DNA of 64,000 nucleotides, taken from Alcanivoracaceae bacterium (GTDB lineage Bacteria; Pseudomonadota; Gammaproteobacteria; Pseudomonadales; Alcanivoracaceae). Under the pieces are notes generated by a model. The model searched no databases. It saw nothing but the letters and a program-made list of their open reading frames with translations, and was not told the DNA's origin. The translations under genes and the position numbers were made by a program. Location of the stretch: the NCBI GenBank assembly GCA_029212745.1, contig JARGOL010000005.1, positions 27,558-91,557 of the forward strand, read 5' to 3'. Positions 11,163 through 54,172 of the stretch are shown here, piece by piece; within the stretch, counting starts at the first letter, position 1, and every line of letters begins with the position of its first letter.

Positions 11163-12151
11163 CCAAGCAGGCTTTCCTCGCCGGCTGCCTTGCCAGACTG
11201 GGCATTCTTCGCCTGATGATCCGGCGGCAACACAAACGCCTGCCGGTTCTGGCTTACCACCGCATCCTTGACGACGACAGTGATCCGGCAACATTGGCGG
11301 ACCCTGGCCTGTTCAGTGCCACGGCCAGCTCGTTTGATGCGCAGATGGCGCTGGTCTCGCGTCACTTCAATGTCATCACCCTGGCACGGCTGCTTGATCC
11401 GGCACCGCTACCGCCACGCCCACTGGTGATTACCTTTGATGACGGCTACGAGGATAACTACCGTATCGCGTATCCGATCCTGAAAAAGCATGGCCTGCAC
11501 GGTGTCTTTTTTGTTACCACCGGCTTCATCGATGACGGCCAGCCATTGTGGTTCGACCAGGTCGCCATCCTGCTTGACCAGTCCACCCTGCCGCACACCC
11601 TGGACGTGGCAGGTCGCCGCCTGCTGCCCCATGCGTTACCGCGCCAGCAGCTGGTGCAGCAGGTGCTGGCGCACCTGAAGTCGCTCACCGCCGAGGCCCG
11701 CCAGGCCGAAATCAAGCTACTGGAACGGCAGACCGGCAACCCCCGCATTGCCGCGGGCACCCCCATGACCTGGGCCCAGTTGCGGCACATGGCCGACAAC
11801 GGCATGGAGATCGGCTCGCACTCGCGTTCCCACAGTGTTCTTGCCAACGAAACCGCAGGTACCATCACGGCGGAGCTTGCCGAGTCACGCCAGCAGATCT
11901 GTGAGCAACTGCAGCGCGACTGCGTATCCGTGGCCTATCCGGTGGGCGGCACCAGCGCCGTCAATGACCAGGTCCTGCACGCGGCCAGGGAGTGCGGTTA
12001 CGGCATCGGCTGCACCTACCTGTCGGGCATCAACCGGCTGCCATTGCGGGACCCGCTGGCCCTGGTGCGTGTGCATGTGGAACTGGACGTGACGCTGGCA
12101 CAGTTTTATGCCCAGCTGGCGCTGCCTGACCTGTTCGGGTACCGCCACTGA
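11159..12151 (+). CDS. polysaccharide deacetylase (NodB/CE4 family)
   Basis: The ATG at 11159 makes an ATGA overlap with the J-domain gene stop. Motifs LAYHRI, ITFDDGYEDNY and GSHSRSH are present. Confidence 0.85.
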   Translation: MTKQAFLAGCLARLGILRLMIRRQHKRLPVLAYHRILDDDSDPATLADPGLFSATASSFDAQMALVSRHFNVITLARLLDPAPLPPRPLVITFDDGYEDNYRIAYPILKKHGLHGVFFVTTGFIDDGQPLWFDQVAILLDQSTLPHTLDVAGRRLLPHALPRQQLVQQVLAHLKSLTAEARQAEIKLLERQTGNPRIAAGTPMTWAQLRHMADNGMEIGSHSRSHSVLANETAGTITAELAESRQQICEQLQRDCVSVAYPVGGTSAVNDQVLHAARECGYGIGCTYLSGINRLPLRDPLALVRVHVELDVTLAQFYAQLALPDLFGYRH

Positions 12152-13763: not shown

Positions 13764-15824
13764 ATGTCGACTTCACTGCTGCTGGTTATATCACTCGCCT
13801 GCGCCATCACATGGATTGGCCTGGCCGGTTATGCCCTGTCACTGGGACGCCAGCACAGCGCCACCCGGCCCTTGCTGTGGCTGTCCGTGATCAGCGCCGC
13901 CTGGACCTTCAGCCTGGTAAAACCCGAGACCCTGCCAACCCCCCTCTGGCTGGCCCTTAGCCATGCCGCCGAGGCGGCCCGGCTGCTGGCCTGGTGGGTG
14001 CTGGTCCAGGCCACCGCCGGCTACCGGCTGATACATGGCCAGCAGGGGCTGGTGGGCCTGCGCCGTTTCCAGTGGCTGTTACTGGCCTGCCTGGTCCTGA
14101 TTCTCTACTCCGGTGCCAGCCATCTTGCCGGTCTCCCGGCACTGCGCCTTTCCGTCACCGCCATGGCATTTGTCATTGCCAGCCTGCTCCCGCTGGTGGC
14201 CATGGAGCAGCTGTTCCGCAACATGGATCAGGAGCAGCGCTGGGCAATCAAGTTTTTCGTATTGGCGCTGGTTGCCAGCACGGCCATGGACGTGATCACA
14301 CACCTGCATACCCTGCTTTACGCCCGCGTTGACTTGCAGCTGTGGCTGGCACGGGCACCGGTGGGGCTGGTCACTGCCCTGCTCATGGGCGCCGGCCTGC
14401 GCCGCTTGTTGCGCCTGCCTGCCATGGTTTCCCTGTCACACCAGCTGGTGTTCTACACCGGTACGCTGGTCACCACCTCCCTGGCCCTGTTTTTATTGGC
14501 CGCCGGCGCCTGGTACATCCGCCGCTGGGGTGGCGCCTGGTCCACCGTGTTCCTCGCGCTGTTTATCAGTGCCGGTCTTGCGGTGCTCGCCAGCGCCCTG
14601 CTGTCCGGGCGTTTCCGGGCCTGGCTGCAGGTATTCCTGTCCCGCCATTTCCTGCCCTACCGTTATGACCACCGCATGGAATGGCTGCGACTCAGTGAGA
14701 CGCTGGCGCGCGCGGCCGAGCAGAACAGCCTGCCCATTACCGTGGTCCAGGCGCTGGCCAACATCGTCGACAGTCCCGCCGGATTGCTGTTTCTCGTACG
14801 TGACAAACAGCTCCTGTGCCAGGCCGACTGGAACCTGCCGGCGCCACAGCAGCCCCTGCCACTGGATGACACCACGCGGGCCAGGATGCATGAGCAGCAG
14901 TGGATTCTTGATCGCGACCGGGATGACGCGGCGGACATTCCCGACTGGATGAGCCGCATTGACCGCAGCTGGCTTGCTGTGCCCCTGCTGGACGATCACG
15001 GCCCCGTGGCTGTGGTGGTCCTGGCTCATCCGCGTGCCCGGCGACGGCTGAACTGGGAAGACTATGACCTGCTGCGGGTTGCTGCTCGCCAGGCCGGTGC
15101 CGTGATGGCGCTGCAACTGGCCGGCGACGCACTGGGCCAGGCGCGCCAGTTCGCGGCCCTGCACCAGAGCACCGCTTTCCTGGCCCATGACATCAAGACC
15201 ATGATTGCGCAGCTTTCCCTGCTGGCCCGAAACGCCGAACGCCATCGCGACAACCCGGCTTTTGTCGACGACATGATCGAGACGGTGCAGCACAGCGTGG
15301 AGAAAATGGAGGATATCCTGGCACAACTGCGTCAGCCCTCTGGCGGCGTTTGCGCAACAGAGTGCTCTGCCATTGCCCTGCTGCCGTTGCTGCAGGACAC
15401 CGTGCGCAGACTGTCTCGTTTCCAGCCATCGCCAACCCTGGAAACGGATGACGACCCGGGTTGTGTCCAGGCCCGCCATGAGGACCTGGTTACCGTGCTC
15501 AACCATCTGGTGCGTAACGCCCAGCAGGCTTGTGATGACAGCGGCAGTGTGCACATCCGGGCGTTCAGGGATAACGGTGATATTGTCATTGAAGTGCAGG
15601 ATTCAGGGCGCGGCATGAGTCCGGCATTCATTCGCGACAACCTGTTCACGCCTTTTCACAGCACCCGTGGTGTGTCGGGTATGGGTATTGGCGTTTTCCA
15701 GAGCCGCTCACTGATCGAAGCCATGGGCGGCTCATTGTCAGTGGACAGTCGCGAAGGTGTTGGCTCCTGTTTTACTATTCGCCTGCCGGCAGCCGAACCG
15801 GCCAACAGGGATGAACCGCTATGA
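13764..15824 (+). CDS. prsK: PEP-CTERM system sensor histidine kinase
   Basis: 686 aa. It has a large multi-TM N-terminus, a GAF-like middle region, an H-box FLAHDIKT and an HATPase_c domain (VIEVQDSGRGM ... GMGIGVF). It is genetically coupled to prsR. Confidence 0.85.
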   Translation: MSTSLLLVISLACAITWIGLAGYALSLGRQHSATRPLLWLSVISAAWTFSLVKPETLPTPLWLALSHAAEAARLLAWWVLVQATAGYRLIHGQQGLVGLRRFQWLLLACLVLILYSGASHLAGLPALRLSVTAMAFVIASLLPLVAMEQLFRNMDQEQRWAIKFFVLALVASTAMDVITHLHTLLYARVDLQLWLARAPVGLVTALLMGAGLRRLLRLPAMVSLSHQLVFYTGTLVTTSLALFLLAAGAWYIRRWGGAWSTVFLALFISAGLAVLASALLSGRFRAWLQVFLSRHFLPYRYDHRMEWLRLSETLARAAEQNSLPITVVQALANIVDSPAGLLFLVRDKQLLCQADWNLPAPQQPLPLDDTTRARMHEQQWILDRDRDDAADIPDWMSRIDRSWLAVPLLDDHGPVAVVVLAHPRARRRLNWEDYDLLRVAARQAGAVMALQLAGDALGQARQFAALHQSTAFLAHDIKTMIAQLSLLARNAERHRDNPAFVDDMIETVQHSVEKMEDILAQLRQPSGGVCATECSAIALLPLLQDTVRRLSRFQPSPTLETDDDPGCVQARHEDLVTVLNHLVRNAQQACDDSGSVHIRAFRDNGDIVIEVQDSGRGMSPAFIRDNLFTPFHSTRGVSGMGIGVFQSRSLIEAMGGSLSVDSREGVGSCFTIRLPAAEPANRDEPL

Positions 15825-17176
15825 GCCGACGATTGCTGATCATTGAAGATGATCCCGGCCTGCAGAAACAGATGAAGTGGTGTTTCGATGGTATCGACAT
15901 CAGCCTGGCCGACAAGCGGGATGCTGCCCTGGCCGAGCTGCGACGGCTGGACCCGCAGGTGGTCACACTGGATCTGGGCCTGCCACCGGACCCCGGCGGC
16001 GCCAGTGAAGGCTTCGCACTGCTGAAAACCATTCTCGAACTGCGACCGCGCACCAAGGTGATCGTCATCACGGGCCGCGAAGAACGCGAGCATGCGGCGC
16101 GGGCCATCGGTATGGGGGCGTGCGATTTCTACCAGAAACCCCTGGACGCTGACACCCTGAACTTTGTCGTCAACCGGGCGTTTCGCCTGGATGAGCTGGA
16201 ACAGGAGAACCGGCGCCTGTCCCGCCATGACGCATCGCCCCTGGCAGGCATTATTGCCACCAGCCCGGAAATGCTTGCCACCTGCCAGTACGTGGAAAAG
16301 ATTGCCGGGGCTGACATTACCACCCTGATCCTGGGAGAAACCGGCACTGGCAAGGAAGTCATAGCCCGTGCCATCCATGGGCTGAGCGACCGGGCGCAAG
16401 CACCGTTTGTGGCCATCAACTGTGCTGCCATTCCGGAAAACCTGCTGGAAAGTGAGCTTTTCGGCTATGAAAAAGGGGCCTTTACCGGCGCTAACCGGCA
16501 GAAGCAGGGCAAGGTGGAAGCGGCCACGGGCGGCACACTGTTCCTGGATGAAATTGGTGACATGCCGGTGGCGCTGCAGAGCAAGATGCTGCGCTTCCTG
16601 CAGGAGCGCGTGATCGAACGTGTCGGTGGCCACGACAGCATTCCCGTGGACGTCCGCGTCATATGCGCAACACACCAGGATCTCGGCGACATGATCGGCC
16701 AGGGAAGCTTCCGCGAAGATCTTTACTACCGGATTGCGGAGATGGTCATCGAGCTGCCACCGTTGCGCGACCGGCAGGGTGACGCCGTGGTACTGGCAAA
16801 CGCCTTTGTCGGCCAGTTTTCCGAACAGTTGAAGAAAAACGTCAAGGGACTGGCGGATGACGCCGTCAGCGCCATCAACTGCTACCGATGGCCAGGCAAT
16901 GTCCGGGAAATGGAAAACCGGCTCAAGCGGGCGGTACTGATGGCCGACGGCCCCTACATCACTGCCTCGGACCTGCAGCTGTCGGATGCCCCCGATCAGC
17001 AGGCCAAGCCCGAGGCGTTGAACCTGCGCCAGGTGCGGGAGAAAGCCGAGTCACAGGCCATTCGCCAGGCCCTGTTGCTGAGCGGCAATAACGTTGCTGC
17101 CGCCGCACGGTCGCTGGGTGTTACCCGACCCACGCTGTACAGCATGATGGAAAAGTACGGCCTGAAAGGCCACTGA
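15821..17176 (+). CDS. prsR: sigma54-dependent response regulator (NtrC family), PEP-CTERM system
   Basis: ATGA overlap with prsK. It has a REC domain, an AAA+ domain with GETGTGKE and the GAFTGA loop (EKGAFTGA), and a C-terminal Fis-type HTH. Confidence 0.9.
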   Translation: MSRRLLIIEDDPGLQKQMKWCFDGIDISLADKRDAALAELRRLDPQVVTLDLGLPPDPGGASEGFALLKTILELRPRTKVIVITGREEREHAARAIGMGACDFYQKPLDADTLNFVVNRAFRLDELEQENRRLSRHDASPLAGIIATSPEMLATCQYVEKIAGADITTLILGETGTGKEVIARAIHGLSDRAQAPFVAINCAAIPENLLESELFGYEKGAFTGANRQKQGKVEAATGGTLFLDEIGDMPVALQSKMLRFLQERVIERVGGHDSIPVDVRVICATHQDLGDMIGQGSFREDLYYRIAEMVIELPPLRDRQGDAVVLANAFVGQFSEQLKKNVKGLADDAVSAINCYRWPGNVREMENRLKRAVLMADGPYITASDLQLSDAPDQQAKPEALNLRQVREKAESQAIRQALLLSGNNVAAAARSLGVTRPTLYSMMEKYGLKGH

Positions 17177-38828: not shown

Positions 38829-38930
38829 GGGGGCCCTCACCCCAACCCCTCTCCCCGAGGGAGAGGGGCTTTCTGGGCGGTGCGCTGGCAGCGTCCCCTC
38901 TCCCCCGGGGAGAGGGACAGGGTGAGGGCC
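38829..38930. repeat. composite palindromic intergenic repeat, copy 1
   Basis: The outer arms GGCCCTCACCCC ... GGGTGAGGGCC enclose two hairpins, CCCCTCTCCCC-ga-GGGAGAGGGG and CCCCTCTCCCCC-GGGGAGAGGG. The same element occurs inverted at 53950..54048. Confidence 0.75.
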
Positions 38931-44260: not shown

Positions 44261-44321
44261 AGATAACGTCGCAAACAGGGGCGCCGGTTACGGCGTCCCC
44301 TCTTGCTCTGCCTTGTTATGA
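44261..44321 (-). repeat. attC-like recombination site
   Basis: aGATAACGTCGCAAACAGGGGCGCC-ggtta-CGGCGTCCCCTCTTGCTCTGCCTTGTTATGa. The upstream ORF reads into it. Confidence 0.75.
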
Positions 44322-44737
44322 CAGGGGCGCGCCGGGACTGGCTTGCGGTAATAGTGCCCATTGATTTCGCCATCAAGCGAAGTTGTTGAGAGCGAGCAGT
44401 CAGTGATTTCAGATACTTTGTCTTTCCGCACGGTCCCATCACGCCACTTCAAGATGAGGATTTCATCCTTCAGGGACCACTCACCACCCGTTGATTCGCT
44501 CTCGACATGTCTCCCTTCGCTGAACACTGCGATGCTGAAATTCCCGTCGGCCTTGAGTTCCATTTTCCAAATACTTTCACTTCCCATTGAAAAATACCAT
44601 GCCCCGAGGATCTCATGTGTATTAATCGCCTTCTCAGCACTGCAATCCATGAAACTGCCATGATTAACCGTGGCATCAGATGCATAGCCAAAGCAAGGAA
44701 ATAGCACAGCCAAGATTAGGATAAGGAGTCTTTTCAT
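44288..44737 (-). CDS. cassette ORF, small exported protein (149 aa)
   Basis: The internal ATG at 44737 gives the signal peptide MKRLLILILAVLFPCFGYA. The long ORF-track version would overlap the neighbouring cassette and its attC. Confidence 0.6.
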   Translation of the reverse strand: MKRLLILILAVLFPCFGYASDATVNHGSFMDCSAEKAINTHEILGAWYFSMGSESIWKMELKADGNFSIAVFSEGRHVESESTGGEWSLKDEILILKWRDGTVRKDKVSEITDCSLSTTSLDGEINGHYYRKPVPARPCHNKAEQEGTP

Positions 44738-44744
44738 ATTCTCA

Positions 44745-44796
44745 TCACGTCGCGAGCAGGGGCGCCAAAGGCGTCCTCTGTAGCGCCTTGCTAGGT
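44745..44796 (-). repeat. attC-like site with degenerate cores
   Basis: TCACGTCGCGAGCAGGGGCGCC-aaa-GGCGTCCTCTGTAGCGCCTTGCTAGG. The cores are TCAC/GCTA instead of TAAC/GTTA. The stop of the upstream ORF lies in the outer core. Confidence 0.6.
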
Positions 44797-45264
44797 GACG
44801 CTTATCAGGCCTAGGCCATCCAATCCCAGAGCTATTGCAGTCACTACGATAACAAAAAGCACCATCCCCAGAATACTTATCCCGAATACCTTCCAGCCCG
44901 ACTGAAAATCCAAATTTTCGGACTCCAAAACGTCCTGCTTGGATGGCTGCGTTTTGTTGGCAAGCCATACTGTAGGCACCAAGTAGAGAACCGGAATTAC
45001 ATTATTCGGAAAGTCTTCTGGTAGATAGACCACCAAAAACGAAAAACACAGAATGAATAGCCCGCCTACAGTCAACGCCATCCTCGATAATCTATACATT
45101 TGGAGGGCGTCAAAGTTGGCCTTCAAGAAATATACTGCGGCGAAAGGTCCGCCGATAAATGTGCCCAATCCAATCTGCATCGGTGAATAGACTGAGGCTG
45201 TAACTTCTGCGTTAGGACTAGAATCAATCTCTGCCTGTGGGGCGTCATATGCATTTCTATTCAT
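44791..45264 (-). CDS. cassette ORF, small integral membrane protein (157 aa)
   Basis: The protein has about 4 predicted TM helices and an ATG start. Confidence 0.6.
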   Translation of the reverse strand: MNRNAYDAPQAEIDSSPNAEVTASVYSPMQIGLGTFIGGPFAAVYFLKANFDALQMYRLSRMALTVGGLFILCFSFLVVYLPEDFPNNVIPVLYLVPTVWLANKTQPSKQDVLESENLDFQSGWKVFGISILGMVLFVIVVTAIALGLDGLGLISVT

Positions 45265-45287
45265 TTTTTCTCTTCGCTCTTTTGTCC

Positions 45288-45368
45288 TAACGCTCGCACC
45301 AAGGGCGCCCGCAGCAACGCGGATGGCGTCACGCCGCGCTTTTCGCGGCGTAATTCCTGCGCGTGTTA
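45288..45368 (-). repeat. attC-like site (long variant, about 81 bp)
   Basis: TAACGCTCGCACCAAGGGCGCC ... GGCGTCACGCCGCGC-ttttc-GCGGCGT ... GCGCGTGTTA. Confidence 0.6.
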
Positions 45369-45372
45369 TGAA

Positions 45373-45831
45373 TTACCTGCACCTAACGAAATACTCTCTA
45401 ATATTTAAATTTGAAAACATGGAGCTGTGCCCCGCAACGTACACCCACATAATATCTTGGCCCTCGAAGTGATAGGTAACTATTAGGTCAGACCCATCTA
45501 GATCCTGGGTTTTTACCACGACTGTGTCCTTGTCCTGGCCGAGAATCGTATAGGTTGATTCCTCTGTAAATCCTTCGAAGGTTGATTTTTCACCATCTGA
45601 ATGTACTTCAATAGAGGGCATGTTGAGCTTCGATACTCCGTCCAAAAATTCGATCGTCATATGCCCCATAAGTTGATCGAAAAATATTCTCTGGCGCTCT
45701 TCGAGAATCGCATTACGGTTATTGAACCCGGAGGTCAATTCTTTATTGGACCTCCACTTCCCTTCAATTGATGCCGCATGGGCGTCGCTAGCAACTAAAA
45801 AAAACAATAGTGCAAAGAAGATAGGCCTCAC
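45373..45831 (-). CDS. cassette ORF, small exported protein (152 aa)
   Basis: GTG start with a GAGGGG RBS. The signal peptide is MRPIFFALLFFLVASDAHA. Confidence 0.6.
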   Translation of the reverse strand: MRPIFFALLFFLVASDAHAASIEGKWRSNKELTSGFNNRNAILEERQRIFFDQLMGHMTIEFLDGVSKLNMPSIEVHSDGEKSTFEGFTEESTYTILGQDKDTVVVKTQDLDGSDLIVTYHFEGQDIMWVYVAGHSSMFSNLNIREYFVRCR

Positions 45832-45850
45832 TGGAACCCCTCAGTACTAA

Positions 45851-45905
45851 TAACGTCGCAAACAGGGGCGCGCTTGAGCGTGCCCCCGCTTGCTTTGCCT
45901 TGTTA
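45851..45905 (-). repeat. attC-like recombination site
   Basis: TAACGTCGCAAACAGGGGCGCGC-ttga-GCGTGCCCCCGCTTGCTTTGCCTTGTTA. The TAA stop of the upstream ORF is the TTA of the GTTA core. Confidence 0.8.
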
Positions 45906-46301
45906 ATTCTCATCGCCCATTATGTTCGCTCTGACGGTTTCCATGAAAACTCCCCGCATCATCGTTCGATTAGTCGGGTTTCTCATGAAACCCTGCATCC
46001 TCAAAAGTAGACCTGGACGCAACCTGGGCTTCTCATTCTCAATGTACATTCCGAGCTTGGATAGCATGGCCATATTATCAGGGGACCCGTCCATCTTTGC
46101 TGCCCCAGTAAAGGCAACAAGTATGAATGTTTCGAAGTCCATATCGCCTTCTTCAAAGACATTCTTCGTCTGCTCAAGGACTTTCGGGCTTTCTATCTGC
46201 TTATCAAGAAAATCTTCAAGTCGCACGTCTAAATCAGCTGCTAATACTGAATCAGCTGAGCCAATCCATAACACTAATAATACAAAAATCGGCCGGATCA
46301 T
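45903..46301 (-). CDS. cassette ORF, small exported protein (132 aa)
   Basis: The signal peptide is MIRPIFVLLVLWIGSADSVLA. Confidence 0.6.
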   Translation of the reverse strand: MIRPIFVLLVLWIGSADSVLAADLDVRLEDFLDKQIESPKVLEQTKNVFEEGDMDFETFILVAFTGAAKMDGSPDNMAMLSKLGMYIENEKPRLRPGLLLRMQGFMRNPTNRTMMRGVFMETVRANIMGDEN

Positions 46302-46313
46302 TATCGCCCCAAA

Positions 46314-46372
46314 TCAACGCCAAGCTAAGCGGCTGCCTGGAAGGCAGTCCGCGCATTTCAGCGACTTGTTAT
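46314..46372 (-). repeat. attC-like site (divergent sequence family)
   Basis: TCAACGCCAAGCTAAGCGGCTGCC-tggaa-GGCAGTCCGCGCATTTCAGCGACTTGTTAT. The stop of the upstream ORF lies in the GTTA core. Confidence 0.6.
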
Positions 46373-46743
46373 GCGTGAATCTCAAACTGAACCTCTCCGC
46401 CAACTATTTTTACTTGCCCAAAGTCACCAGATATTATGAAGCCGTCGGCAGTTTTTTCTAACTGGTCAATATTGCCATAATCTATGGAGCCATCCGGGTC
46501 CCTCGTGAATGGACTCTGTTCCTGGGCGCGCAAACCAGTAACTGACTCAAAGCCAAAAAACCTTAGGCTGGCTCGTCGGTAACACGTGTATTCATTATTC
46601 TTTGGTTCATAGTAGTAGCGAGAGGCTGGCCAAACGCTGGCCTCCAAGTCAAACAGGAGGCTTCCACTCTCCTGGATCCAACCAAAAACAAAAGAGTCAT
46701 TTAGGTCGATGCCTTCGAAAGTGGGCATTTCCGTCCAGTTCAT
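46369..46743 (-). CDS. cassette ORF, cytoplasmic hypothetical protein (124 aa)
   Basis: The protein has no signal peptide and is acidic and aromatic-rich. Confidence 0.55.
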   Translation of the reverse strand: MNWTEMPTFEGIDLNDSFVFGWIQESGSLLFDLEASVWPASRYYYEPKNNEYTCYRRASLRFFGFESVTGLRAQEQSPFTRDPDGSIDYGNIDQLEKTADGFIISGDFGQVKIVGGEVQFEIHA

Positions 46744-46756
46744 CGCAATTCACACA

Positions 46757-46810
46757 TAACGCCGCCAACAGGGGCGCCTGTAAGGCGTCCCCGCTTGCTT
46801 GGCCTTGTTA
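46757..46810 (-). repeat. attC-like recombination site
   Basis: TAACGCCGCCAACAGGGGCGCC-tgtaa-GGCGTCCCCGCTTGCTTGGCCTTGTTA. The stop of the upstream ORF lies in the core. Confidence 0.8.
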
Positions 46811-47125
46811 ACCAACCTGAATCTCCTCGAGCTCAGTTGGCGGCACGGTAGTCATGGAAACCATGGCCTGGCCGTTGGTCAATGGGACTCCGATGGCATA
46901 CAAGCCCTGCTTAGTGCCTGCCGTGAAGTACATCTGCTGCTGGCCATCCTTGCTCAAGTAAAAGCCGATCAATTTAAAATCGTGTTCATAGAACGGCTCT
47001 TCGTCTGTTCCCTCGAAATCCTCGGGCGGGTAGGTGCCGTATTCCAGATTGAAGTAGTCAACGAAGTCCTTCCCCTCGAGAGACGGTCTTCCTTGAAACT
47101 CATTGCACTCTATAAGTTCGTCCAT
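46808..47125 (-). CDS. cassette ORF, acidic hypothetical protein (105 aa)
   Basis: ATG start with an AGGGGT RBS. No signal peptide. Confidence 0.55.
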   Translation of the reverse strand: MDELIECNEFQGRPSLEGKDFVDYFNLEYGTYPPEDFEGTDEEPFYEHDFKLIGFYLSKDGQQQMYFTAGTKQGLYAIGVPLTNGQAMVSMTTVPPTELEEIQVG

Positions 47126-47138
47126 CGATACCCCTGGT

Positions 47139-47193
47139 TAACGTCGCAAACAGGGGCGCGCCTTGGCGCGTCCGCGCTTGCTTTGCCTTGTTA
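47139..47193 (-). repeat. attC-like recombination site
   Basis: TAACGTCGCAAACAGGGGCGCGCC-ttg-GCGCGTCCGCGCTTGCTTTGCCTTGTTA. Confidence 0.8.
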
Positions 47194-47196
47194 TGG

Positions 47197-47547
47197 TTAC
47201 TCGCACGGCTTTGACTCTGCGAGAAATTCGCAAAACGCCAGCCGGCGATGCCTCACTATCACATCTGGCACTTCCTCGCTCATAATAGCGCGCCGTGCCT
47301 GATCCTTAAGCAAAGCACCCTCAATCATGGCTAGTGCGTTATGAAGCTCACAAACGCCCAAGTCGGCTCCGTCCGAGAGAGATTGCTGCAATGTGTCGAA
47401 ACTCTCTCTCGCAGAGGCTTTGGAGAAATCACTCTCGCCCCAAGCGAAAGCGTTTCCCTTGCCTTCATTTGCACCCTCGCAGATTGGCCCCGCAATTCCC
47501 GCAAGCGGAATAAAAATAATGCAAAGAACGACGCATCTATATTTCAT
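47197..47547 (-). CDS. cassette ORF, small exported protein (116 aa)
   Basis: The internal ATG at 47547 gives the signal peptide MKYRCVVLCIIFIPLAGIAG. Confidence 0.55.
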   Translation of the reverse strand: MKYRCVVLCIIFIPLAGIAGPICEGANEGKGNAFAWGESDFSKASARESFDTLQQSLSDGADLGVCELHNALAMIEGALLKDQARRAIMSEEVPDVIVRHRRLAFCEFLAESKPCE

Positions 47548-47617
47548 CCGAACAATCCATAACAGTGTATTAGGCCGAACGGTTCGGCCTATCCAAAGTT
47601 CCGCTATTTCCCTGCAG

Positions 47618-47650
47618 TAACATAGCGTCGCCAACAAAAGGGGCGGTATT
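47618..47650 (-). repeat. half attC (inner L-prime/R-prime-like arm only)
   Basis: GTAACATAGCGTCGCCAACAAAAGGGGCGG matches the TAACGTCGCAAACAGGGGCGC arm. The partner arm (CGCTTGCTTTGCCTTGTTA type) is absent. Confidence 0.55.
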
Positions 47651-47852
47651 ACAGTGAGTTAGCTTCCTCTGGGCAATATCCTACACCAGTGAATCCGGCC
47701 ATGTCGTGATTGGCGGTGTCCGGCGAGAATGACGGCAAACTGATATCAGCTTAAGCAGGCCAACGGTAAATCAATGCGTTAACGGCTCTCCGGCCAGATG
47801 ATAGCGCAATAACCGGCCTTTTCCTGTGAGCACGCAGATAACGGTGTCGCCC

Positions 47853-48644: not shown

Positions 48645-48797
48645 GACTTTCTCCTTGGCTGATCAACAGGGAGAGTGTCGCCGCTCTGGCATACGTAGCG
48701 GTAGGCATATCGTGACAGCACACGGCCCTTGGCCAGAATTGCGCCGGGATTGGCGTTAACAGTGTGGGCGACAGCCACTTGCGCGGCTGCCTCGTGC

Positions 48798-48872
48798 TCA
48801 GATCTCGCGGGTTTCACGGAAACGGATCTCCGGGTGGCGCTCTTTCGCCAGCCCGAGGCGGACCCGCGCAGT
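48798..48872 (-). pseudogene. orphan duplicate of the last 24 codons of prfC
   Basis: The coding strand reads [23 protein letters not shown]-stop. The live prfC ends [23 protein letters not shown]-stop at 50725. There is no upstream reading frame or start. Confidence 0.85.
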
Positions 48873-48881
48873 GCTTACCGG

Positions 48882-49412
48882 TCACTGACTGCCTGCATCG
48901 ATTCCGCTGTCGCCCGCATCGCTGAGACGCGCCTGCGCTTGCCGGCGCAGGAAGTACAGGGCACAGCGGGAAATAACGACGCCATACACACCCATCACAG
49001 CACCGTACAAGTAGGTAGAAGGGGACGGCGAGTCGTCGAACAGCGACAGTCCAAGCACCAGCACGCCGGGCAGCCCACCTGCCACGAGAAAACGCCAGGC
49101 AGTCTGTGGCATGCGCCGCAACCAGCTCACATAGGCAAGGGCGCCGTATGTAAGTGTCACCAGGCTGGCAACAAGCATCACTGGCAGCCAGGCCACAATC
49201 AGAAGGGCCAGGTCCTGCAGCCCTTGCAAGTCGCCGAAGGCCAGCAGCAACACACCGACAACCCCTTGCAAGCCAACAGTCCCCGTGAACGCACCAAGGA
49301 AGCCCGCATAGACCCAATGCCTGCCGGGTGGCGCGGACGGAGTTGCCAGTGACGCCCGGGGTGCGCGGTAGGCTGTGTCAATGCCAGGGGGCCAACGGCG
49401 AGAATCTGCCAT
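48882..49412 (-). CDS. hypothetical integral membrane protein
   Basis: The ATG at 49412 has an AAGGAAA RBS. The protein has about 4 TM helices. The gene ends 9 nt before the prfC remnant. Confidence 0.5.
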   Translation of the reverse strand: MADSRRWPPGIDTAYRAPRASLATPSAPPGRHWVYAGFLGAFTGTVGLQGVVGVLLLAFGDLQGLQDLALLIVAWLPVMLVASLVTLTYGALAYVSWLRRMPQTAWRFLVAGGLPGVLVLGLSLFDDSPSPSTYLYGAVMGVYGVVISRCALYFLRRQAQARLSDAGDSGIDAGSQ

Positions 49413-49544
49413 GCTGTTTTCCTTGCCGCCTTTCAAACGAGATACGTCGCTAACGAGGGTGTGAAAAATAATACCGTCAGCCAGACGTTTCAGGTCATGC
49501 TATATCAGCTTTTTGTCCAAGCATTTCCCGCCTTGGCAGATGGT

Positions 49545-50045
49545 TCAAACAGGTCTGATTGAGGCATTCATATCGCTGACCTCTGTTCTGTAAATCAGCC
49601 AGACGTCGTCTTCCTTGCGCAAGTATGATTCTTGCCTGAATTCCTGCTTCTGTATTGCCTTCTTTCCATTCACCTCAAGAAGGAACAAACCTTTTGACAG
49701 AAAGACGGCTTTGGCGGTGCCTTCTTCCGGATTGCAGCTCCAGGAAACCATGTTCATGCTCAACTGCATTTGTTCCGCCTGCATCATGATCGACTTCGCG
49801 CTACGAACAAATTCCTTGTAACTTTTTATCTTTCCGTCTGGAAGGACTTGCACATGATCATCGGTGTAAGCCTCTATCCAGCTATCAAAATCTTTTGCCT
49901 CAAAGTCACGCATGGACTTTTCACTGAGTGCCTTGACGTCATCCGCTATCAAGCAGCCCCAAGAGACTCCATATACGGTCATAGACAAAAGAAAGACAAC
50001 GGCCCTTATGCCCAGAACAATGCGAGTTCCCATGGGTTCTTTCAT
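49545..50045 (-). CDS. NTF2-like (SnoaL/DUF4440-type) protein with N-terminal signal/anchor
   Basis: AT-rich ORF. A hydrophobic N-terminus is followed by the pattern DFEAKDFDSWIEAYTDDHVQVLPDG ... WLIYRTEV. Confidence 0.55.
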   Translation of the reverse strand: MKEPMGTRIVLGIRAVVFLLSMTVYGVSWGCLIADDVKALSEKSMRDFEAKDFDSWIEAYTDDHVQVLPDGKIKSYKEFVRSAKSIMMQAEQMQLSMNMVSWSCNPEEGTAKAVFLSKGLFLLEVNGKKAIQKQEFRQESYLRKEDDVWLIYRTEVSDMNASIRPV

Positions 50046-50051
50046 GCGGCT

Positions 50052-50723
50052 CTACTCTTGCGAATCTTCGTCTGGCACATACTCTTCAGACGGGAGGAAT
50101 ACCAGCGGGGCCTCGATTCGCTCTTCGTCCGGAATCCGTTTCACGAATGCCCCGGCATCCAGCTCCGGGAATTTTTCCAGCAGAAGCTGCATATCCCGCT
50201 CCTGCTTGTCGGAGAGGACCCAGATGCCCCCCCAGGGGATGAAAATGCCGAAGGTATTCCGGGCCCGCTGGGGCACCAACTTCACCTCACCCAGGTAGGT
50301 AATAGCATTAGGCAGAACCTCGAAAGGGATGGAGTAATCTTCGCGGGCGCTGAAATGGTTGGCGCCACCATTGAGGAAGAAATTGTAGAACTCGTATTCG
50401 CCCACCGGCAAAGGAATCAGAAAGGCCGCTCCCTTGTAGTCATAGGAGCTGAAATCATCCCGATAACCGCTGAACAGATCACCACCCGCAGGCGGATTAC
50501 TCTCCAGCCGATAGGTCTCCTCTGACGCTATGTTCCGGAAGAGGAAGTTGTTCGAGTAGTAGTGCACGGCATTGTATTCCCGCGAGAAACTTCCTGCGAT
50601 ATAGCCGGTTTCTGCGTTGGGCACGTCTTCCGGCAGGACATCTGGCACCAGCGGCGCCGACGCACACCCGGCCAATTGCAGGCTAAGCACAGAGAATGCC
50701 AGGATCGCAATGAATCGGGTCAT
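50052..50723 (-). CDS. hypothetical lipoprotein
   Basis: The internal ATG at 50723 gives MTRFIAILAFSVLSLQLAGC (lipobox). The start lies 1 nt after the prfC stop (TGAcATG). Confidence 0.65.
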   Translation of the reverse strand: MTRFIAILAFSVLSLQLAGCASAPLVPDVLPEDVPNAETGYIAGSFSREYNAVHYYSNNFLFRNIASEETYRLESNPPAGGDLFSGYRDDFSSYDYKGAAFLIPLPVGEYEFYNFFLNGGANHFSAREDYSIPFEVLPNAITYLGEVKLVPQRARNTFGIFIPWGGIWVLSDKQERDMQLLLEKFPELDAGAFVKRIPDEERIEAPLVFLPSEEYVPDEDSQE

Positions 50724-50724
50724 G

Positions 50725-52302
50725 TCAGATCTCCCTTGTCTCTCGGAAACGGATCTCCGGATGACGCTCTTCCGCCAGCCCGAGGTTGACGCGGGTGGGC
50801 GCCAGGTAGGTGAGGTTGCCGGCGCCGTCTTCGGCCAGGTTTTCATAGGCCTTGTCGCGCAGCTTGTCGATATCGCGCTCGTTGTCGGCCTCTACCCAGC
50901 GCGCGGTGTAGACGCTGATGGGCTCGTAGTTGCACTCCACGCCGTATTCCGCCTTCAGGCGGTGGGCCACCACATCGAACTGCAGCATGCCCACGGCACC
51001 GAGAATCAGGTCATTGTTCTTCAGCGGCATGAACACCTGGGTGGCGCCCTCTTCCGCCAGCTGGGTCAGGCCCTTGTGCAGCTGTTTGCTCTTCAGGGGG
51101 TCTTTCAGCACCACACGGCGGAACAGTTCCGGGGCAAAGAACGGGATGCCGGTGTAGCGCAGCATTTCGCCCTCGGTGAAGGTATCGCCCACCTGGATGG
51201 TGCCGTGGTTGTGCAACCCGATGATGTCACCGGCAAAGGCCTGCTCCACGTTCTCGCGCTCGCCGGCGAGGAAGGTGAGCGCGTCCGAGATGCGCACGTC
51301 CTTGCCGGTGCGGCACTGGTGCATTTTCATGCCCTTGCGGTATTCCCCCGAGCAGATACGCAGGAACGCCACGCGGTCGCGGTGCTTGGGGTCCATGTTG
51401 GCCTGGATCTTGAAGACGAAGCCGGTGAATTTGTCTTCGTCCGCATCCACATGGCGCTCTTCGGAATCGCGGCCAGTGGGGCACGGCGCCCACTCCACCA
51501 GGCCATTGAGCATATGGTCGACGCCGAAGTTGCCGAGCGCAGTGCCGAAAAAGCACGGGGTCAGCTTGCCGGCCAGGAACTCGTCCTTGTCGAACTCGTG
51601 GCTGGCACCCTGCACCAGCTCCAGGGTCTCGCGCAGCTCGTCGGCATAGGCGCCCACGGCGGCATCCAGGTCCGGGTTGTCCAGGCCCTTGATCTCGCGA
51701 ACGTCCTGGATGGTGTGGCCCTGGCCGCTCTTGTACAGCACCGTGGTGTCGGTGAGCAGGTTGTACACGCCCTTGAATTCCTTGCCCATGCCGATGGGCC
51801 AGGTGATGGGCGAGCACTTGATCTTCAGCACCTCTTCCACCTCATCCAGCACTTCGATGGGGTCGCGCACGTCGCGGTCGAGCTTGTTGATAAAGGTTAG
51901 GATGGGCGTATCACGCAGGCGGCACACCTCCATCAGCTTGATAGTGCGCTCTTCCACACCCTTGGCGCAGTCGATCACCATCAGGGCCGTGTCCACTGCC
52001 GTCAGGGTGCGGTAGGTGTCTTCCGAAAAGTCGGCGTGGCCCGGAGTGTCCAGCAGGTTCACGGTGGCGTCGCGATACGGGAACTGCATCACCGAGGTGG
52101 TCACCGAGATACCCCGCTGCTTCTCCATCTCCATCCAGTCGGAGGTGGCATGGCGGCCCGACTTCTTGCCCTTCACCGTGCCCGCCATCTGGATGGCATT
52201 GCCATACAGCAGCATCTTCTCGGTGATGGTGGTTTTACCGGCATCCGGGTGCGAGATGATCGCGAAGGTGCGCCGTTTCCTGATTTCGTCGAGCAGGGCC
52301 AT
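50725..52302 (-). CDS. prfC: peptide chain release factor 3
   Basis: The ATG at 52302 gives [25 protein letters not shown]. GTPase G1-G4 motifs are present and similarity to RF3 runs the full length. Confidence 0.93.
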
Positions 52303-53949: not shown

Positions 53950-54048
53950 GGGCCCTCACCCTGTCCCTCTCCCGGAGGGAGAGGGGACGCTCCAGACGAG
54001 CGCGGTAAAAGCCCCTCTCCCTCCGGGAGAGGGGTTGGGGTGAGGGCC
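53950..54048. repeat. composite palindromic intergenic repeat, copy 2 (inverted relative to copy 1)
   Basis: GGCCCTCACCCTGTCCCTCTCCC-gga-GGGAGAGGGGAC ... GCCCCTCTCCC-tcc-GGGAGAGGGGTTGGGGTGAGGGCC closely matches the reverse complement of 38829..38930. Confidence 0.75.
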
Positions 54049-54172
54049 ACCCTCCCCAGAAGGCACCCCATAACCCCACGATTCCCAAGGAAAAACCGTC
54101 CATCGGCCACCCTACGAACCACGCGCCAACACGGGTAGAATGGCCGCCCGTTTGCACTGACCGGACTGTTGC

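Follow-up and report, generated by a model that had tools for sequence, protein, structure and literature searches.

The prfC locus and its repeated tail

The 64-kb stretch of Alcanivoracaceae bacterium DNA analyzed here (the window; contig JARGOL010000005.1) contains prfC, which encodes peptide chain release factor 3, followed by three small genes, an orphaned second copy of the prfC 3′ end, a methyltransferase gene, and a cassette array that belongs to a decayed integron. All of these lie on the minus strand, and coordinates are given in window numbering. An earlier note, made from the letters of this DNA, had proposed that the three genes entered by site-specific integration into the 3′ end of prfC. 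The relevant features on the prfC side of the locus are as follows.

50725..52302, minus strand: prfC, 525 amino acids (aa), intact; Pfam GTP_EFTU, EF-G_D2, and RF3_C
50744..50785, minus strand: live prfC tail, left repeat block, CCTCGGGCTGGCGGAAGAGCGTCATCCGGAGATCCGTTTCCG; 50744-50760 matches the orphan exactly over 17 nt
50725..50743, minus strand: live prfC tail, right part, ..A GAG ACA AGG GAG ATC TGA; block derived; holds AAGGGAG at 50731-50737
50052..50723, minus strand: lipoprotein gene, 223 aa, lipobox LAGC, ATG 1 nt after the prfC stop; open reading frame (ORF) and sequence
49545..50045, minus strand: SnoaL/NTF2-like protein gene, 166 aa; Pfam SnoaL_3 at E 1.3e-4, barely above the cutoff
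48882..49412, minus strand: membrane protein gene, 176 aa if started at ATG and 184 aa if started at a TTG upstream; stop about 25 nt before the orphan repeat
48798..48857, minus strand: orphan prfC tail; left block at 48817-48858, native-type last codons and stop at 48798-48816
48645..48797, minus strand: native prfC-methyltransferase intergenic region; homologous to the L004 spacer, its methyltransferase-proximal part also to L101 and L097
47853..48644, minus strand: class I S-adenosylmethionine (SAM)-methyltransferase-like gene, 263 aa, the native prfC neighbor; directly after prfC in L004, L097, and L101

The PrfC protein of the window recurs unchanged on 11 public contigs, all labeled Alcanivoracaceae bacterium, and the PrfC cluster has one member. 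The window-type arrangement was found in five contigs (L001, L002, L003, L005, and L006) and at one metagenome locus (L088); L005 is 100% identical to the window across its full 6.2 kb. L004 belongs to the same species, and its prfC is 97 to 99% identical in the upstream part of the gene (97.6% from −690 to −351, with 1 to 2 mismatches per 100 nt further upstream). Three other Alcanivoracaceae, L097, L101, and L007, encode PrfC proteins with 91%, 88%, and 89% identity to that of the window.

A repeat search recovered the two tails as a direct repeat of 69 nt with 84% identity and a spacing of 1,927 nt (family D5). A degenerate 41-nt tail pattern matched exactly twice in the 64 kb, compared to 0.00 matches expected from 100 shuffles. 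Both copies stay in the PrfC reading frame and translate as ...LGLA(E/K) followed by the shared tail residues; the in-frame stop before the orphan is the stop codon of the membrane protein ORF. The left block of the repeat, 42 nt long (CCTCGGGCTGGCG[G/A]AAGAGCGCCACCCGGAGATCCGTTTCCG), is identical at 39 of 42 positions in the window and at 41 of 42 in the sister strain L001, and the exact core shared by the two tails measures 17 nt in the window and 28 nt in L001. The 19-nt right part holds six differences, all of which are synonymous (live AGAGACAAGGGAGATCTGA versus orphan TGAAACCCGCGAGATCTGA). In the live copy, this part opens with the third base of the Arg codon CGA, the CG of which lies in the left block, and continues with five recoded codons and the stop. 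The final codons had been correctly listed before as CGT GAA ACC CGC GAG ATC for the orphan and CGA GAG ACA AGG GAG ATC for the live copy.

Upstream of CCTCGGG (codons −69 to −58), the two copies resembled each other only weakly, with about 7 matches in 12 to 15 positions; the orphan encodes ARVR there, and every real allele encodes TRVN. Weak similarity of the orphan may reach to about 48866-48872. Judged by this alignment, the well-supported repeat is about 60 nt long. The duplication that the earlier note had put at 72 bp, or the last 24 codons, is real, with the 24 codons as an upper bound. Homology to prfC ends at about 60 to 70 nt, so the orphan does not belong to any longer paralogue of prfC. 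Short-word blastn in the window, in L001 to L003, and in L088 revealed no third tail copy beyond the array, and the idea of the whole array as one element bounded by tail copies was dropped for that reason.

Family searches agreed with the earlier description of three genes between the copies, none of them encoding a recombinase, and the lipoprotein ATG does lie 1 nt past the prfC stop. With regard to the function of this cargo, Pfam, NCBIfam, and PADLOC returned only the weak SnoaL_3 match; the lipoprotein matched no family in any of the three. The SnoaL/NTF2-like gene has the lowest G+C content of the block (46 to 50%). The lipoprotein was represented by only two 90%-identity clusters in a search of 5.8 billion proteins, and the membrane protein gave no homologues beyond this species. 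The block is rare, with no match in 185,579 species genomes and one metagenome locus. It contains no recombinase. For the window, tblastn with IntI over the full length and Pfam on 38 large ORFs, which are most of the large ORFs, detected none either.

The insertion site is empty in relatives

The prfC gene is followed directly by the methyltransferase gene in L004, from the same species, as well as in L097 and L101. Therefore, the adjacency of prfC and the methyltransferase gene is ancestral, and the lipoprotein, SnoaL-like, and membrane protein genes constitute an insert. The earlier note had named a comparison with relatives as the check on an insertion between prfC and its native neighbor, and an arrangement common to all relatives as the result that would speak against it; L004, L097, and L101 have empty sites. 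The methyltransferase returned 527 homologues, which some sources name class I SAM-dependent methyltransferase.

The DNA after the L004 prfC stop matches the right part of the orphan and the DNA behind it (window 48857-48695 versus L004 3216-3379, 82%). Over the last 18 nt of prfC, L004, L097, and L007 are mutually 89% identical, and the live copy of the window is the outlier, with 67 to 78% identity to them. The last codons of the orphan are of the common native type. Both the orphan end and the DNA that follows it are thus native in character, in agreement with the earlier proposal that the native end was left as a remnant at the far junction.

The block carries its own prfC end

The same three genes occur in L004, and identically in L087, at a second location, 3.5 kb downstream of prfC and inside the cassette array. 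The sequence ahead of this copy reads ...GCG↓TTACAG TTACCTACTAT GAAGATGCTTTCGGAAATCTGCTTCCGTGAAACAAGGGAAACCTGAC-ATG (arrows denote crossover points here and below), with 17 nt between the R′ site GCG↓TTACAG of the upstream attC, the recombination site of a cassette, and the start of the block. Homology between the window block and the L004 block begins at window position 50759, which is inside prfC, and the live tail shares with the L004 and L087 copies the leader ACAAGGGA.A.CTGAC-ATG. Read in the PrfC frame, the L004 leader gives ..EICFRETRET followed by a stop. Since the leader can be read in this frame and keeps ACAAGGGA, it is a decayed prfC tail that moves together with the block. The last six codons of the live copy likewise belong to the block, because they also precede it in L004. 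This bears out the earlier suggestion that the incoming element supplied a replacement 3′ end. The 17 nt between attC and leader in L004 were also considered as a homologue of the prfC tail and were rejected, with matches at 3 of 17 positions.

Through the change from ACC CGC GAG to ACA AGG GAG, an AAGGGAG arises some 8 nt ahead of the lipoprotein ATG. The motif is predicted to be the Shine-Dalgarno sequence of the lipoprotein gene, built into the last prfC codons, and its creation would explain the recoding better than foreign codon bias does. The codon differences had been noticed before, with the orphan codons described as the GC-rich ones typical of the host; the differences stand, and the recoding would do more than reflect AT-rich foreign versus GC-rich host composition in that it builds a ribosome-binding site. 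With this site in the prfC end and the ATG 1 nt past the stop, readthrough from prfC into the block is probable. A promoter and terminator scan of the locus was uninformative.

The block proteins of the window and L004 are 87%, 67%, and 69% identical (68 to 70% for the membrane protein); the hosts are about 98% identical. The L004 and L087 contigs both end at approximately the membrane gene stop, where the sample strains probably diverge, and look-ups of the distal flank protein for an L004-type 3′ junction returned no match. Between window and L004, prfC is 92% identical from −350 to −58, and the DNA beyond the stop has diverged by 14 to 21%.

The last 350 nt or so of prfC (window 50785-51075) differ from L004 by 8 to 10%, compared to 98 to 99% identity upstream. 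This step in divergence about 350 nt before the stop marks a homologous-recombination tract that ends inside the gene. When compared with outgroups, the L004 version of the tract was slightly more distant than the window version.

A decayed integron adjoins the methyltransferase gene

Beyond the methyltransferase gene, the window contains the following features.

47563..47852, minus strand: remnant integron platform, intI lost; hairpin at 47572-47590; attI-like crossover ...CTAATACACTG↓TTA, cut between 47563/47562
44264..47562, minus strand: strain-variable cassette array without integrase, a cluster of attC sites lacking integron-integrase (CALIN); seven attC sites, repeat families D1, D2, and D4
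~47139-47193, 46756-46811, 46310-46368, 45851-45905, 45290-45372, 44744-44798, and 44264-44320, minus strand: attC sites, each after a small ORF

The attC repeat is an imperfect palindrome of 55 to 85 nt, TAACAAGGCAAAGCAAGCG...GCGCCCCTGTTTGCGACG↓TTA, present in seven copies that each follow a small minus-strand ORF. The array holds eight small ORFs, to which no function was assigned. The sites fold as attC-type hairpins in which AAC pairs with GTT, with bulged stems and z-scores down to −3.9, and they align with the attC sites of L004 and L007, with compensatory changes in the central stem. The attC calls rest on repeats, folds, and alignment. L001 to L003 are 98.8% identical to the window down to position 47560, at ...CTAATACACTG↓TTA, and carry entirely different cassettes beyond it; identity resumes, at 94 to 96%, at the last attC (44318), and in between only the attC sites match. 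Taken together, the flanks of the variable part are 96 to 99% identical in these strains. The region 44264-47562 thus combines clustered attC hairpins, no nearby intI, and variable content between conserved flanks. Therefore, the window locus is a decayed sedentary chromosomal integron of the CALIN type, a feature that the earlier note had missed. One of the L001 cassettes encodes an Imm35 immunity protein.

Neither intI nor a remnant of it was found in the window by tblastn with IntI1 and the L101 IntI. The IntI1 query is validated by its match in L101. L101 (1-2981; Logan SRR24525804_230232) shows the locus in its intact form and comprises the prfC tail, the methyltransferase gene, a convergent intI, an attI region that ends in CTGTCTAATTACTG↓TTA, and the first cassette. 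Its intI encodes 338 aa with 43% identity to IntI1 and with Pfam Phage_int_SAM_4 and Phage_integrase domains. The order prfC, methyltransferase, intI, attI looks like a previously undescribed chromosomal integron locus of Alcanivoracaceae. The junction ..CTAAT.ACTG↓TTA is common to the window platform, the attI region beside intI in L101, and both platform copies of L007. A wider homology of the window platform to the L007 platform or the L101 attI region was rejected, as only this short junction is shared.

Neither attC-like sequence nor an attC-like fold was found inside the block or between the membrane gene and the orphan. The orphan region was tried as part of a long attC and rejected because its folds were not significant (z, −1.2 to −1.8), and the spacer between the NTF2-like and membrane genes was rejected as not attC-like. 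A GTTAAC located 50 nt after the orphan was considered as a second attI, which would make the methyltransferase gene the first cassette; the idea was dropped because L101 has AATTCC at that place.

Three further observations concern the platform and the methyltransferase gene. At 47572-47590, just ahead of the attI-like crossover, lies a near-perfect 9-bp palindrome, AGGCCGAAC-C-GTTCGGCCT, which is conserved in L004. About 60 nt upstream of the same crossover (47615-47670), there is a degenerate attC-like half-site. Furthermore, L089 (3800-4836; also L090 to L096) contains a methyltransferase homologue with 73% identity and the same 5′ untranslated region, placed among small same-strand ORFs and right after an attC-like end, CGCCGCTGCGCAAGTCG↓TTA, that also occurs at position 1703. 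A gene that adjoins intI in one lineage therefore looks like a cassette in a second one. A prfC stub ahead of this homologue was looked for, and alignment gave no support.

The prfC end is a junction in a second species

A survey that took 80 prfC loci and 10 kb to either side of them from species genomes found only one other orphan tail, in L007, an Alcanivoracaceae metagenome-assembled genome. This genome has lost the methyltransferase gene and intI and has kept the attI region directly after prfC; its attI region is 74% identical to that of L101 over 180 nt (E, 1e-29). The last 81 nt or so of prfC, together with a 310-nt platform that reaches to the attI crossover, are duplicated 4.3 kb apart (11495-11885 and 15798-16186). 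The left 66 nt of the duplicates are 85% identical and the remainder is 97 to 100% identical. Cassettes and an LtrA gene lie between the copies, with no recombinase among them. The repeat starts at −81, and its identity pattern is unlike that of the window. The arrays of window and L007 also have in common the type of attC and a membrane protein cassette family (window 44791-45264 and L007 17284-17745; 47% over 150 aa; E, 6e-52). With two species showing it, the prfC 3′ end is a recurrent junction for accessory DNA.

A reciprocal crossover could have placed the block

The account that we favor, and to which we would give an even chance, is that a block with its own prfC-tail leader entered the gap between prfC and the methyltransferase gene by reciprocal, Campbell-type recombination. 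The lipoprotein, SnoaL-like, and membrane protein genes would be an accessory, horizontally exchanged block that has a copy of the prfC end as its 5′ leader and belongs to the flexible gene pool of the adjacent decayed integron. A crossover between the chromosomal tail and the tail copy of the block, within the 28 to 42 nt that both still share, would leave prfC ending in block-derived codons, with RETREI and the stop kept and AAGGGAG recoded as the ribosome-binding site of the lipoprotein gene. The native tail would be pushed to the far junction and become the orphan of about 60 nt ahead of the methyltransferase gene, where it is possibly retained for the upstream signals of that gene. The block would need no recombinase of its own, and later arrivals would enter at the live tail, displacing the earlier unit and its stub downstream. 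We infer a circular or otherwise reciprocal intermediate as well as the enzyme, for which our expectation is split roughly in half between RecA-type recombination on short identity and some recombinase acting in trans. The predicted circle junction would consist of the membrane gene 3′ end, CCTCGGG...TTTCCG, and AGAGACAAGGGAGATCTGAC-ATG, and the restored empty site of the live left block and TGAAACCCGCGAGATCTGAGCAC.

The near-identical left block followed by an abrupt switch to two different right arms resembles the trace expected of a crossover between tail copies. The ARVR of the orphan is easier to reconcile with a copy borne on the block than with the plain stub of a functional gene. Any mechanism has to account for these two arms, for the lack of an attC, of a recombinase, and of a target duplication of ordinary size, for the second location of the block with its decayed leader, for the age of the block copies and the divergence of the haplotypes, and for the order of the units. 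This order is mirrored between the strains, with block, stub, and methyltransferase gene in the window and methyltransferase gene, cassettes, stub, and block in L004.

Several observations weigh against a reciprocal crossover. All six window-haplotype contigs carry the block, and neither a circular form nor a precise excision was seen. The 3′ junction of the L004 and L087 block lies off both contigs. The two block copies are old and the strains represent different haplotypes from prfC −350 onward; therefore, they do not form a simple recent insertion-versus-excision pair. An identity of 28 to 42 nt is short for RecA. The single mismatch in 42 positions compares with 2 to 3 mismatches in 42 between ordinary alleles, a difference that is not significant, so the orphan could be an allele stub. 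Moreover, the start at −81 and the pattern of the L007 repeat mean that the two species point to no single crossover site. An alignment of the copies, which the earlier note had suggested for defining the crossover core, gave an exact shared run of 17 nt (28 nt in L001), with repeat boundaries that differ between the two species. The note had also called for a search for the prfC 3′ mimic beside an integrase; no integrase-bearing element that uses the prfC tail was found in the 80 prfC loci, and the tail pattern was absent from viral contigs. With no such element at the site, and with the one other orphan tail, in L007, likewise lacking an integrase, site-specific integration in the sense originally proposed goes beyond the evidence.

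The mirrored order of window and L004 is symmetrical in a way that would suit one-ended homologous recombination combined with an illegitimate join after DNA uptake, which we regard as the main and a serious rival, though less likely than not. Two lineages would have differed in the genes after prfC, the three-gene block in one and the methyltransferase gene with the integron in the other; an incoming fragment would have been anchored by homology on one side and joined at its other end about 60 nt inside prfC, leaving the orphan as a truncated allele at an accidental junction. Long direct repeats delete the insert, which would leave short stubs as the only survivors. The stubs start at variable points (the window stub at about −57, the L004 stub at about −47, and the L007 stub at −81), and a homologous-recombination breakpoint lies within prfC, some 350 nt ahead of its stop. 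Neither the window nor the L007 instance yielded a recombinase, and within error, the left block of the orphan resembles the live copy no more than ordinary alleles resemble one another. Homology-facilitated illegitimate recombination is established in naturally transformable bacteria, and the term is in use in the literature. However, this explanation needs a lineage in which the block is a long-term neighbor of prfC, and the block was found only in this species cluster. It also needs three independent joints in the last 47 to 81 nt of a 1.6-kb gene, which survivorship bias may or may not explain. The orphan codons −69 to −58 are unlike those of a functional allele, and the position of the L004 stub, 17 nt past the crossover point of an attC, points to more than a joint made at random.

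That same position, together with the integron remnant at the locus, raises the question of whether the integron integrase of the clade, located elsewhere in the genome or lost, moved the block between the array and a noncanonical site in the prfC tail. Genomic GWT sites can receive cassettes through IntI, which can also excise them together with neighboring DNA (bioRxiv 10.1101/2022.09.11.507474). An attG or secondary site such as G↓TT in GATCCG↓TTTCCG could have served, and imprecise excision would have brought prfC-tail DNA into the array. A relative keeps intI beside the same methyltransferase gene, the other location of the block starts 17 nt after an attC R′ site, and a GTT lies within the shared core of the repeat. 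We nevertheless consider this route highly improbable. A purely IntI/attG event fits poorly, because it should give no duplication of 42 to 60 nt and should leave a 3′ attC, which is absent here, and because neither tail copy folds like attC (z-scores, −1.0 and +0.2). Furthermore, the sequence to the right of GTT departs from the CRGM motif that attG sites are reported to have, the 17 nt from attC to leader in L004 show no prfC homology (3/17), and the window contains no intI or intI remnant. An origin in place without any insertion, by ancient local duplication, as the remnant of a prfC paralogue, or as chance similarity, would agree with the fact that six window-haplotype contigs share both arrangement and orphan. 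Homology to prfC stops at about 60 to 70 nt, however, the pattern occurs exactly twice when none is expected, and the intervening genes also occur elsewhere, in the L004 array. The empty sites in a conspecific strain and two related species effectively exclude in-place duplication or a paralogue remnant, and we see hardly any chance for this class of explanations.

Comparison with known mobile elements

The classic case of an element at a gene 3′ end is that of the relatives of ICESt1/ICESt3, which reside at the 3′ end of fda in Streptococcus thermophilus. Such gene ends can also carry cis-mobilizable elements (CIMEs), and the prfC insert resembles these in several respects. It is small and recombinase-less, and direct repeats of the 3′ end of a protein gene flank it, with prfC kept intact at full length through the end that the element supplied. 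Relatives have empty sites, and the order-variable tandem arrangements recall accretion at the live end (definition of CIMEs and logic of tandem accretion in PMC5704250). In contrast to CIMEs, the insert has no traces of decayed integrase or transfer genes, and neither an integrase within it nor a cognate integrase-bearing element at the same attachment site was found in the window, the 80 prfC loci, or viral contigs. The insert also measures only 1.9 kb, its arms have diverged and do not form a clean identical att core, and its partner unit is an integron array and neither an ICE (integrative and conjugative element) nor an IME (integrative and mobilizable element).

The Xanthomonas sedentary chromosomal integron is fixed downstream of ilvD (bioRxiv 10.1101/2025.06.18.660453), and the categories of IntegronFinder include the CALIN (PMC4889954). 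The window array shares with such loci homogeneous attC sites, small same-strand ORFs without promoters, strain-specific content, a fixed position at a housekeeping gene, and an abrupt shift in identity at the array boundary, and the relative L101 has intI and the attI region. The block of the window, on the other hand, is not placed in the usual manner of cassettes: it lies outside the array, on the far side of the methyltransferase gene and of the place that intI once occupied, has no attC at its 3′ end or elsewhere, and forms an in-frame fusion with prfC. The insertion of cassettes by IntI at attG sites (Loot et al., bioRxiv 10.1101/2022.09.11.507474) offers a parallel as a route from an array into chromosomal genes, with expression from host promoters and coexcision with flanks; those insertions, however, keep attC and do not duplicate tens of target bases, neither of which fits the prfC block. 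SXT/R391 ICEs have the same target gene, prfC, but use its 5′ end, are about 100 kb in size, and bring their own integrase and conjugation machinery, whereas the 1.9-kb insert at the prfC tail sits at the 3′ end and lacks an integrase. In the literature on prfC as an integration target, we found only this use of the 5′ end, by SXT. The prfC insert is thus a CIME-like variant flanked by gene-tail repeats, and its neighbor is a CALIN.

Taken alone, the rearrangement is small and probably old. It gains interest from the occurrence of the same three-gene block both fused to a housekeeping gene and inside the array of a sister strain, which makes a concrete and testable link between array and chromosome, at a time when the question of how cassettes arise and leave arrays is still open in the field. 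It is also a case of coding economy, in which synonymous recoding of the prfC end would make the ribosome-binding site of the incoming gene. In addition, the integron locus can be seen at different stages of decay across Alcanivoracaceae lineages. A bolder and, in our estimate, improbable extension holds that the prfC end is a secondary docking site of the integron of this clade, with blocks shuttling between the array and the in-frame prfC end. If so, the recoded prfC codons would be both a recombination handle and the ribosome-binding site of the block. If movement went in the opposite direction, the L004 array copy would be a chromosomal gene block caught in the act of being recruited into a cassette array, which would bear on the unsolved origin of integron cassettes.

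Further features of the window

Two pairs of inverted, palindromic elements of about 42 nt, GGGAGAGGGG/CCCCTCTCCC, are located at 38829-38930 and 53951-54051. They are 95% complementary and, at a distance of 15 kb from each other, enclose prfC together with the block and the array; the L004 contig breaks at one of them. These elements are probably REP-like repeats (repetitive extragenic palindromic sequences). The other end of the window, from 60 to 23000, is occupied by a PEP-CTERM-type exopolysaccharide locus, with genes for glycosyltransferases, a Wzy-like ligase, a polysaccharide export protein, a deacetylase, a flippase, a sigma-54 activator, a sugar transferase, and a PEP-CTERM protein.

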